Notes under the pieces: generated by a model
Seen by the model: only the letters and a program-made list of their open reading frames with translations
Database searches by the model: none
What the model was told of the DNA's origin: nothing
Position numbers and translations under genes: made by a program
Assembly: GCF_030384885.1 (NCBI RefSeq)
Contig: NZ_CP128613.1
Length of the DNA stretch: 64,000 nucleotides
Direction: 5' to 3' (one strand)
DNA from: Escherichia coli
GTDB lineage: Bacteria; Pseudomonadota; Gammaproteobacteria; Enterobacterales; Enterobacteriaceae
Part shown: positions 17,357 to 24,996 of the stretch, piece after piece
How positions within the stretch are numbered: position 1 is the first letter of the stretch
Layout of the letters: each line of letters starts with the position of its first letter

Positions 17357-17599
17357 GATGTAATCCTTGTGCAGACAAATTTCTTGTTACCTAACAGTAA
17401 CAATACCATGACATTTCACCGTTGTCTGCTCTGAAAACCTCACCTCTTAGCTGGATTTACAATCAACGCATTGATTAGTTAGCTAATGTTGCTACTTCCT
17501 TCCCTGACTATTGATGATCTGAATGAATTGTCGCGGTAAAATAGCCCCGCCAGGGGTTTCCGGCATGACGACAATTATCTGGAGGAGCCTGATAAAACA

Positions 17600-20290: not shown

Positions 20291-20472
20291 AAGTTACCCT
20301 CAAACCTGCGTTAATAATCATGCGTAATTATTTGTTTCGCCTTAAAGAAATGCAAACAACTTCCGGCAAAAAAGTGATACAAGATCGATAACATAGCGTT
20401 GAAGAAAAGGATTTGATAATCCGCAAAATTTGCACAACACTGCCTGTAATACTTCCTGAACCAGAGACGATC

Positions 20473-22259: not shown

Positions 22260-22763
22260 ATGTCACAAACCGTTCATTTCCAGGGCAACCCGGTTACAGT
22301 CGCCAATTCCATCCCGCAGGCGGGTAGCAAAGCGCAGACTTTTACTCTCGTGGCAAAAGATCTGTCTGACGTCACCCTCGGTCAGTTTGCGGGTAAACGC
22401 AAAGTGCTGAACATTTTCCCGAGTATTGATACCGGTGTTTGCGCCGCATCAGTACGTAAGTTTAACCAACTGGCAACCGAGATCGACAACACCGTTGTGC
22501 TGTGTATCTCTGCCGATCTGCCGTTCGCCCAGTCTCGTTTCTGCGGCGCAGAAGGTCTGAACAACGTTATCACCCTCTCCACTTTCCGTAACGCTGAATT
22601 CCTGCAAGCCTACGGTGTGGCAATTGCTGATGGCCCACTGAAAGGTCTGGCAGCGCGTGCCGTTGTGGTTATCGATGAAAATGACAATGTGATTTTCAGC
22701 CAGCTGGTTGATGAAATCACCACCGAGCCGGATTACGAAGCAGCTCTGGCTGTACTGCGCTAA
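22260..22763 (+). CDS. tpx: Thiol peroxidase Tpx
   Basis: The [25 protein letters not shown]... carries the peroxidatic Cys motif DTGVCA. Recognised as Tpx. Confidence 0.96.
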
Positions 22764-22770
22764 ACAACTG

Positions 22771-22809
22771 TGCCGTTCACTGAATCACCACCGGTGAACG
22801 GCAGTTTTT
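22771..22809 (+). terminator. Intrinsic terminator of tpx
   Basis: 10-bp stem tgccgttcac/gtgaacggca with a 13-nt loop, followed by gttttt. Confidence 0.85.
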
Positions 22810-22916
22810 GATCTACCAGTCCCATTATTTTCCAGAGTTCCTGCCACTATTCCCCCTAACCGTTGTGCATTAAGATTGCTCTTTGCCATTATTGGCCCAG
22901 CGGAGTGATGACTATT

Positions 22917-24959
22917 ATGGATGATAAACAAATTACGGTCTGGCTTAAACACAATTGCTGTTCAACGGACATTCCTGCCATTGCCGAGGCACTAACGAAC
23001 CATGCAGAATGGCTTTTAGAGCTAGCGCCAGATCCTATTGAACAAGGTTGTTCATGTTTACCGCCGACAGCTGCAGCCGGTATTTTTCTTGGCGCAGCGG
23101 CGATGGTTCACTGCGGCGAGGCTAGTGGTGCAGAAACCTGGCTCGAAGCAGCCATTACTGATTACCATTTCTTTAATCCAAATGGATATAGTTCATGGAG
23201 AGGCAGTACGCCTGTTTTTACAGCATTATCGCGTTACCCGGCATTAAGAATGGTGTTATTTAACGCCGCTTGCGCAATGGAAGACTGGAATAAAGCATCC
23301 GCTGTTCTTGAATCGCTTTTCCATGCCAGCGATGTAACGGAAGATAACCCTGTCGCCCCCAATTTTACCCCTTATGCGCTGAAAGCGTTTATCGCGGATT
23401 ACCACCCGTTAGGGCCTGCTTATTATGATGAAACCTGGTTGCTGGCAAAACAAGCGTGGTTAATTAATGCGGGCGTTCTGGATGAGCGAACCTGTAATAC
23501 CTGGAAGCAATATACCCGCCATTTGCGCCATTTGATCCATAATGCACAGTTTTCCGATGCGATCTCTTTTGTACGCAGTAAAAAAGAACCATTAAATCAT
23601 ATCCATACCTACTCAGACTTTTATCTCTATGCGATTGGTTTATTTTCTTCTACTGATCAGCTAAGTGAAGCGCTAACCTGGGTAAAACAATTAATCCGCA
23701 ACAATGATGGTCATTTCCATGATCTTTTCGTTTCAACTGGCGCAAAGCGCCGAATAAAGCCTGAACTTAGTACCTTGCTGAATAATCTCTTGTACAGCGC
23801 AGAGTTTCAGGCGTTGCAGGATAAATATCTCACCGTCGGACATGATGTTGTGCATTCTGGTCCCTTCATGTCACTTTATGAAAAGGTTCTTGGCGGTAAG
23901 TCCCGAAAGCGCTGCGCGATTAGTCGAAAATTAATCTCACCCGGCGAAGCGGTTTATGAATATCGTCAGCTGGATAGTGTGGAATATATTGCAGCGAAAG
24001 CGGCCTTTCAGACATCTGAGCTAAATAATATCGCCCACCGGCATCATAATGATAGTTATCAGTGGCATGAATTTGCCGTCCAATGGCCTCGTCGGGGTTC
24101 ACTTTCTCACCCAGATATTGCCCGTTATTTGTTTGAGCGCCAGGAAGGAAAATGCTTTGATGCCGCAGAGTTTATACAACTGATTGCGGAACCGTTTGTC
24201 TTTCCGATGCGTTTCATATGGGTTGCCGGGTTGTCCTTTGAATTACATCAGTATCCGGATGCCTATTTCGTAAATGACAATATGGCGGGTGAATTTGTTA
24301 ATCTCTGCTGGATGGCTATGAAATGCGGACATGCTGGCGACATTTTCAAACAACTGGCCCACGAGCCGCATGACGTTGCTGACCCTATTTACGCCATGCT
24401 CGCCACGTTTGACCGCGCTGATTGCCGTAGCGCCGCCGCCGCGCACTTTGGACAACCGGAACTACCGGAAATAATGGCACTGGCTTTCAGTTCGAGGTTA
24501 TCGCTCGACAGCGTCCTTACCATCGCTGAGTTTGGTAAAAATCAGCCGCGATTTTCACATGCGCTAGCAACGGCCCTCCTGCGTTACAACCTGCACATCT
24601 ACTCAAACTATATGCCGCAGGTTAACTGGTACCTTCAGGGGCTGGAACACTATGCTTTGGCAAAAGGCGGTCAACTTTTAAATTTCTTTGTGCATATTCC
24701 AGAACAAATTCCCGTTCTGGCGACCATGCTGGAACATGGCGTATTAGTGCGTGGGATCGGTGAAGGTGCCTATGATGGTTATGATAATTCAGCAAATTCA
24801 TTTCATCATGCCGCCGTGATGCACTGCCTCACGCACGCGCCGGAAAAAGTCCGCTACTGGATGGAAACACCCTGGATTCAGAACTATTTAGTGAATGCGC
24901 CGCTGCGTCAAACGGCGCGCCATGTGGAAGCCTGGCATAAAAAGTTTGGCATCAAATGA
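22917..24959 (+). CDS. Orphan large soluble protein of unknown function (about 680 aa), the sole gene on an accessory segment between tpx and tyrR
   Basis: An uninterrupted ORF runs from 22863 (TTG) to TGA 24957-24959. In-frame ATGs occur at 22908 and 22917. GGAG at 22902-22905 favours 22917, but the start is uncertain. I see no signal peptide, TM segment or catalytic/NTP-binding motif. No sequence family is recognised by me. Confidence 0.75.
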   Translation: MDDKQITVWLKHNCCSTDIPAIAEALTNHAEWLLELAPDPIEQGCSCLPPTAAAGIFLGAAAMVHCGEASGAETWLEAAITDYHFFNPNGYSSWRGSTPVFTALSRYPALRMVLFNAACAMEDWNKASAVLESLFHASDVTEDNPVAPNFTPYALKAFIADYHPLGPAYYDETWLLAKQAWLINAGVLDERTCNTWKQYTRHLRHLIHNAQFSDAISFVRSKKEPLNHIHTYSDFYLYAIGLFSSTDQLSEALTWVKQLIRNNDGHFHDLFVSTGAKRRIKPELSTLLNNLLYSAEFQALQDKYLTVGHDVVHSGPFMSLYEKVLGGKSRKRCAISRKLISPGEAVYEYRQLDSVEYIAAKAAFQTSELNNIAHRHHNDSYQWHEFAVQWPRRGSLSHPDIARYLFERQEGKCFDAAEFIQLIAEPFVFPMRFIWVAGLSFELHQYPDAYFVNDNMAGEFVNLCWMAMKCGHAGDIFKQLAHEPHDVADPIYAMLATFDRADCRSAAAAHFGQPELPEIMALAFSSRLSLDSVLTIAEFGKNQPRFSHALATALLRYNLHIYSNYMPQVNWYLQGLEHYALAKGGQLLNFFVHIPEQIPVLATMLEHGVLVRGIGEGAYDGYDNSANSFHHAAVMHCLTHAPEKVRYWMETPWIQNYLVNAPLRQTARHVEAWHKKFGIK

Positions 24960-24996
24960 ACGTTGCCGCTGCGCCTGAACGGCGCAGCCAGCACAA

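Follow-up and report, generated by a model that had tools for sequence, protein, structure and literature searches.

What is a gene of 680 codons doing between tpx and tyrR, two convergent genes whose stop codons lie 43 bp apart in Escherichia coli K-12 MG1655, with one bidirectional hairpin between them? The question is raised by a 64,000-nucleotide stretch of E. coli DNA (NCBI RefSeq assembly GCF_030384885.1, contig NZ_CP128613.1), referred to here as the window, in which exactly 2,233 bp (positions 22764-24996) separate tpx on the + strand from tyrR on the - strand. An earlier note on this DNA, made from the sequence alone, had singled out the gap and its one long open reading frame (ORF), which we call the orphan gene, and had put the K-12 spacing at about 50 bp; our coordinates agree with it. 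The segment is an old inhabitant of the species, and our leading, though still tentative, reading of the gene is that it encodes a solo ("orphan") immunity protein of a new family. The gene and the parts of its product are as follows.

22917-24959, + strand: orphan gene, 680 amino acids (aa) plus stop, the sole ORF of the segment
22917-23843, + strand: N-terminal helical-repeat half, aa 1-309, TPR/PPR-like
23871-24011, + strand: small beta subdomain, aa 319-365, with the basic motif GGKSRKRCAISRKLISPGE
24012-24956, + strand: C-terminal all-helical domain, aa 366-680, the most conserved part, with the invariant G471

Distribution, age and selection

The segment was found in 32 of 5,426 complete E. 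coli genomes (~0.6%), always on the chromosome and always between tpx and tyrR, and its boundaries were identical in all carriers examined. Every other genome matching either flank (5,382 of 5,414) had the empty K-12-type junction, and none of the 5,414 held alternative cargo. Because the site occurs in two states only, tpx-tyrR is not the integration hotspot that the earlier note had thought a pangenome survey might reveal. The species representatives of other Escherichia are without the gene, in keeping with the description of it as accessory.

Selection was analysed on eight intact alleles, which fall into two clades. Between the clades synonymous divergence (dS) was 0.13-0.15 and nonsynonymous divergence (dN) about 0.04, a dN/dS of about 0.3, and tyrR in strains of the two clades differed at a dS of 0.13-0.20. 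Since the divergence of the insert matches that of tyrR, the insert is as old as the deep haplotypes of the region, and we take the segment to be an old, rare presence/absence polymorphism rather than a recent arrival. Horizontal origin had been proposed on the strength of a hand count of about 45% G+C and frequent rare codons; neither impression survives computation, and the compositional case for a recent transfer is weak. G+C comes to 47.1% in the ORF and 47.5% in the segment, while the 48 other ORFs of the window average 52.2% (ORF z -1.5), G+C at third codon positions (GC3) is 0.449 (z -1.7 against the same ORFs), and rare codons make up 4.5% against 3.3 +/- 1.7%, so that the composition lies within 1.5-1.7 standard deviations of its neighbours.

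For pairs with dS >0.01, dN/dS in the orphan gene was 0.26-0.52, compared with 0.01-0.03 in tyrR between the clades and about 0.05 in tpx; by region it was lowest in the C-terminal domain (0.20-0.25) and reached 0.4-0.5 for residues 191-309. The gene is thus under weak purifying selection and is maintained as coding sequence, which speaks against recent acquisition.

A gene this rare might nevertheless be a decaying relic that has no current function in present-day E. coli and is kept by linkage in a few lineages. At least 8 of the 32 carriers hold a copy disrupted by a frameshift or by the insertion sequence (IS) IS600, and of 30 listed carriers at least 8 are annotated with two ORFs in its place. 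A +1 frameshift in an A-run at nucleotide 264 is found in five listed records (three SMN strains from cattle, OkiPb01679 from bovine faeces and the human isolate 2014C-3011), and IS600 interrupts the gene at nucleotides 1083-1086 in strains 2013C-4830 and 2012C-4227 (L003 5296-6452). The gene is decaying in some lineages, and one of the conditions that the earlier note had said would tell against its proposal, absent transcription together with frequent disruption in relatives, is thus seen in part. The databases also hold many truncated products of the family, dN/dS among the closest alleles, with their few substitutions, is 0.56-0.84, and the promoter suggested for the gene, TTGTGC-N18-CATTAT, failed a consensus scan from which no convincing promoter emerged, a result that also counts against an active gene. 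However, eight alleles drawn from both clades keep the 680-codon frame intact at dS up to 0.15 with dN/dS of about 0.3, which is unexpected for neutral sequence, and both Salmonella, where one variant is on 743 contigs, and Klebsiella have intact orthologues at 49-59% identity. We regard a functionless relic as unlikely.

A mobile element was also considered and rejected, given the absence of repeats, tRNA, phage or close plasmid copies and the identical boundaries in carriers. The segment holds no tRNA, IS, integrase, target-site duplication or terminal repeat, as expected from the remark that no such gene lies nearby, and an Rfam scan of it gave no match and hence no hidden RNA gene.

A family without described relatives

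The orphan protein is identical to database entries named only "hypothetical protein" (e.g., CAD6063418.1). Searches of Pfam, NCBIfam and PADLOC returned no match to it, and a sequence-profile search of the PDB returned repeat-level PPR/TPR matches only, so that its reputation as unassignable by sequence holds. A word-index search of 5.8 billion proteins yielded ten clusters (E. coli at 90% identity, named Salmonella at 56-59%, unnamed ones from 58% to 49%, and two high-GC relatives at 38-40%), to which a second word-index search with a profile added nothing. A HMMER profile search of 1.84 billion representatives reached further and recovered 131 proteins, 54 of them with E <1e-30, many of which are 470-540 aa long and are missing some 190 residues at the N-terminus. 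In the GTDB set of species representatives, carriers of the family are Klebsiella sp. MISC125, the only enterobacterial one, and several Alphaproteobacteria (Aliirhizobium, Roseomonas, Azorhizobium, Reyranella, Rhodobacterales and Sphingomonas). The one plasmid homologue is distant, at 28% identity, and lies on a conjugative Sinorhizobium plasmid; tblastn of the protein against 50,697 phage records gave no match.

Fifty members were compared with Pfam, NCBIfam and PADLOC, and none had a match in the family core. Two members carry an N-terminal ankyrin fusion, and PADLOC reported PDC-M72A in two members, Ankyrin in one and a weak DpdE match in one (E 0.00032); judging by the member counts, the PDC-M72A and Ankyrin matches are probably those two ankyrin-fused proteins. 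Taken together, these searches describe what appears to be a tiny, previously undescribed family, absent from Pfam, NCBIfam and PDB.

Few polar residues are conserved across the 50 members. G471 is present in all 50, Y557 and G343 in 48 and C333 in 43; W571, H560, Y562 and R350 are also conserved, with C333, R350, Y557, H560 and Y562 each found in 39-48 of the 50. The hallmark of the family is Y557-x-L-H560-x-Y562-S-N, encoded at nucleotides 24585-24608. The E. coli protein is rich in Trp (2.5%), His (5.3%), Tyr (4.6%) and Cys (1.9%), as had been noticed by eye, and the E. coli proteome averages for these four residues are lower.

The N-terminal half has the fold of a helical-hairpin solenoid, which together with the PPR/TPR profile matches upholds the idea of TPR-like repeats in this part of the protein; its match to Pfam TPR_19 (E 0.057, 14.2 bits against a cut-off of 25) falls below the gathering score. 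The beta unit that follows (GGKSRKRC-x2-S-x3-I-x-PGE) weakly resembles the PARP-1 zinc-finger fold, with a marginal score. It has no CCHC set of zinc ligands and no match to zf-PARP (Pfam PF00645), one Cys being conserved, and the resemblance is a lead only. The C-terminal domain is confidently modelled, and in the structure library searched it had no solved structural relative; as modelled, it would be a domain without known structural kin. Sequence and structure comparison matched no enzyme family, defence family or solved enzyme fold, and the protein is probably cytoplasmic and non-enzymatic.

Could the protein instead be a stand-alone anti-phage or anti-plasmid defence system or sensor, whose TPR-like half senses the invader and whose C-terminal domain is a new effector? 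In its favour, the gene is accessory, large and on its own and its product has a repeat-type N-terminus, a type I restriction HsdR gene is found about 6 kb away from one distant member, and there are two sub-threshold matches, to TPR-S in one member (E 0.0019) and to NA-iREase2 (E 0.057) in an ORF, L013:3305-4381, that is the split N-terminal half of a second family copy. On the other hand, PADLOC found nothing in the family core and matched ankyrin repeats only, the phage records were empty of relatives, the site with its lack of alternative cargo is no defence hotspot, and no nuclease, NTPase, TIR, SIR2, pore or other effector signature was seen. The neighbours of family members are moreover of the immunity type and not of the defence type. 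We consider this the least likely of the explanations weighed here, a clear outsider. The guess of defence or immunity in the earlier note accordingly divides, the immunity half being indirectly favoured by the homologue neighbourhoods described below and the half concerning known anti-phage systems finding no PADLOC match.

Gene neighbourhoods of homologues

We looked at about 22 independent contexts, which cover a minority of the 131 family clusters. Approximately six of these contexts, in unrelated taxa, contain genes known or suspected to confer immunity (TsiV/DUF3396, Tli4_C, SUKH, ankyrin). A Salmonella island combines TsiV/DUF3396 (Pfam E 4e-31) with IS remnants, DUF4034 and DUF1266. 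The island in Klebsiella and in related Logan contigs is low in GC3, adjoins hrpA and contains Tli4_C, an ankyrin protein and three RHS-repeat-like paralogues, and the Sinorhizobium plasmid pBSY16_2 has two SMI1/KNR4 genes, two DUF1963 genes and one DUF3396 gene. A metagenome array (L037) includes DKNYY and a SUKH_6/SMI1_KNR4 gene only 7 bp downstream of the family member. Genes of DUF1963 lie within a few kb in three further loci (L021, L025 and L023), and no other family is as common among the neighbours (6 of 107 proteins, at 4 loci).

Established immunity families thus recur near the family, as in polyimmunity-type arrays; they lie near 4 of the 22 contexts, which by a rough estimate, and not a computed one, is well above the few per cent that chance might give. 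SUKH, ankyrin and HEAT proteins are listed as immunity proteins, and "heterogeneous polyimmunity loci" described, by Zhang et al. (2012, PMC3482391), and TsiV has been shown experimentally to be an immunity protein against VRR-Nuc effectors of the type VI secretion system (PMC9635880). The homologue arrays with immunity families fit such heterogeneous polyimmunity loci, and the sporadic distribution, solitary insertions and frequent decay of the family would fit the pattern of orphan immunity genes.

As a solo immunity protein, the product would bind and neutralise a cytoplasm-acting toxin domain from other bacteria, of type VI or another polymorphic toxin class, and carriers not making that toxin themselves would thereby be protected. 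Transcription might proceed from a weak promoter of its own or by read-through past the tpx terminator, and the gene might be lost by deletion, frameshift or IS insertion wherever the matching attacker is absent.

Several results weigh against this reading. The defining context of an immunity gene is adjacency downstream of a toxin, and in none of the approximately 22 contexts did a toxin (Rhs, PAAR, VgrG, CdiA or LXG) lie directly upstream of a family member. Most contexts (about 16 of 22) are ordinary, with the member solitary among housekeeping genes like the E. coli copy. At 680 aa the protein is large for an immunity protein, no member among the 50 matched a described Imm family in Pfam or NCBIfam, and no positive selection was detected, dN/dS being below 0.55 in every region. 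The conserved C333, H560, Y557 and Y562 could belong to an active site or bind a ligand. Lastly, the commonest neighbour, DUF1963/YwqG, has only been proposed to be a protein-interaction or chaperone domain (PMC4275035).

A rival explanation is a cytoplasmic factor unrelated to conflict, such as a novel enzyme, a ligand- or nucleic-acid-binding protein, a scaffold or a regulator, dispensable and sporadically kept in Enterobacteriaceae and Alphaproteobacteria. The ordinary contexts include genes for GGDEF/EAL proteins (L019, L026), a phosphotransferase system (PTS), GH3, IclR, AraC, MFS and photolyase; the five conserved residues C333, R350, Y557, H560 and Y562 are in place in most members, the basic beta subdomain is weakly like the DNA-binding zinc finger of PARP-1, and purifying selection is strongest on the C-terminal domain. 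Against such a role, the immunity-type neighbours recur across unrelated taxa, the family has an extremely narrow and uneven spread (131 clusters in a set of 1.84 billion representatives; 0.6% of E. coli genomes), copies are often pseudogenised, and the PARP resemblance is without its zinc ligands and without a Pfam zf-PARP match. An all-against-all BLAST of the neighbours revealed no conserved operon partner, and no pathway context is apparent. We judge this factor to be a serious but doubtful alternative and continue to favour, tentatively, the solo immunity protein.

A broader wording of the conflict idea is about as doubtful. The gene would here be the E. coli member of an undescribed interbacterial-conflict family with a new-fold C-terminal domain, possibly read out through a zinc-less, PARP-finger-like basic module, and its product would be either a large, polyvalent immunity protein directed at a cytoplasmic toxin or a sensor of a new type.

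Broader alignments of the family proved too diverse to scan for loci with. A metagenome scan supplied eight further loci, none with a toxin.

Other features of these loci deserve mention. An enterobacterial metagenome locus (L013 3305-7484; also L014 and L015) has two tandem family copies flanked by ydcY-like and ydcZ-like genes; of the two, the upstream one is broken into ORFs of 358 and 344 aa and is closer to the Salmonella/Klebsiella type. These two ORFs had been candidates for an operon partner and were rejected as the split second copy. The Salmonella and Klebsiella islands, although at different sites, have a second gene in common, of 139 aa and 58-61% identity (L004 1545-1964; L018 14516-14932; L011 11459-11923), which suggests a common pool of island cargo. 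In two alphaproteobacterial loci (L019 8951-9904 and L026 2516-7114, the latter the same as L046) the member adjoins a GGDEF or GGDEF-EAL protein, an adjacency that may be due to chance given how common such genes are. Kinship of the family to DUF4034 in Salmonella and to a 508-aa protein in L037 was ruled out by hhalign.

The segment and its surroundings

The remaining features of the region are these.

22260-22763, + strand: tpx (thiol peroxidase), 167 aa
22771-22809, + strand: tpx intrinsic terminator, a 12-bp stem (22771-22782/22792-22803) followed by T5 (22805-22809)
22810-22916, + strand: upstream region of the orphan gene, with a weak promoter candidate (22863-22892) and the Shine-Dalgarno sequence GGAG (22902-22905)
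24968-24988, no strand assigned: GC-rich hairpin between the orphan and tyrR stops, 8-bp stem and 5-nt loop
24997-26538, - strand: tyrR, 513 aa

Both ends of the insertion reach the flanking genes. The tpx product ends ..VLR* in the window against ..VLKA* in K-12, and the left boundary lies inside the 3' end of tpx because these last codons differ. At the other end tyrR reads ..NQKKSEE* against ..SQKKNEE* in K-12 and the stop codon also differs, which places the right boundary at or inside the 3' end of tyrR. The terminator of tpx is as strong as had been claimed, with a folding free energy (dG) of -20.6 kcal/mol and a z of -4.3, and none of 200 shuffled sequences folded equally well; a pattern scan overlooked it because its loop is 9 nt. 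The hairpin at 24968-24988 (z -3.4 for the + and -3.2 for the - strand) is followed by no distinct T-run on either strand and is possibly a shared terminator of the orphan gene and tyrR.

Three starts are available to the orphan gene, TTG 22863, ATG 22908 and ATG 22917, all leading to the stop at 24959. ATG 22917 is favoured by an alignment of ten homologues and is the start annotated by RefSeq in a strain with 99.5% identity, and the second E. coli allele clade is without the upstream ATG, which supports the same choice. By this sequence comparison ATG 22917, giving 680 aa, is the best-placed start. The spacer between GGAG and ATG (22902-22919; alleles L029-L031) varies. It is 11 nt in the window and 8, 11 or 14 nt, through (ATT)n, in clade B, from which the 11-nt spacer of the window differs in sequence, and such variation could tune translation.

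A 12-nt inverted repeat is found near the segment ends (22768-22779, CTGTGCCGTTCA; 24976-24987, TGAACGGCGCAG), its copies 92% complementary. Both sit inside terminator-like hairpins and there are no other terminal or direct repeats; the pair may be due to chance or may be a trace of the origin of the segment.

Beyond the segment, approximately 25000-50600 of the window (tyrR, ycjX-ycjM, psp and puu) has ~94.6% identity to K-12 and only 90% in the 1-kb bin at 34-35 kb, whereas the stretches at 15-18 kb and 50-53 kb have 98-99%; the dS of tyrR against K-12 is 0.18. We read the 25000-50600 stretch as either a deep haplotype or an import through recombination. Also absent from the window, relative to K-12, is the ~2.4-kb ymjC-ymjD-ycjY-pgrR block between mpaA and mppA (20348-20377), at which site an alpha/beta hydrolase gene and an SDR gene are present in some other carriers, and the window lacks IS5F next to ynaI (17479-17482). 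Our search of the literature on the tpx-tyrR locus found nothing relevant.

Significance and comparison with known systems

Nothing here overturns current understanding. What the locus offers is a tractable unknown with possibly a new fold, in a family that lies outside Pfam, NCBIfam and PDB, has a confident model and sits at a two-state locus in the best-studied bacterium. The binary occupied or empty state of tpx-tyrR provides a natural, isogenic-like test system in E. coli. It also corrects the hotspot idea, in that a long insert between core genes can be an ancient single-gene polymorphism without mobile cargo, and such a polymorphism can persist or disappear through homologous recombination. 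Should the immunity reading be right, the orphan immunity genes, which shape how gut Enterobacteriaceae compete, would gain a new family, unusually large and of undescribed fold, and the reading would point to an unidentified toxin circulating among E. coli, Salmonella and Klebsiella.

Three known systems invite comparison. The N-terminal half recalls TPR/PPR alpha-solenoid protein-binding domains, but it is the C-terminal domain that forms the conserved core of the family, and this domain does not resemble TPR repeats. TsiV (DUF3396, PF11876) lies within 2.4 to 8 kb of members in Salmonella and on the Sinorhizobium plasmid, and both proteins are cytoplasmic; the two have no sequence similarity and are linked by co-location only, with no TseV-like effector at the loci examined. 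The closest parallel is with orphan immunity genes and polyimmunity loci (Zhang et al. 2012, PMC3482391; acquired interbacterial defence clusters, bioRxiv 10.1101/471110). The family differs from these in having no Imm match, no toxin neighbour, no link to recombinases or mobile elements and a larger product, and the E. coli copy differs as a single gene in a core intergenic site and not part of an array. It is alike in its sporadic, strain-specific presence and in encoding what would be a cytoplasmic, non-catalytic, repeat-containing protein. Its homologues likewise lie in co-oriented arrays with SUKH/SMI1-KNR4, TsiV/DUF3396, Tli4_C and ankyrin genes, and the ankyrin fusions, tandem paralogues and frequent decay known from polyimmunity loci are all seen in this family as well.

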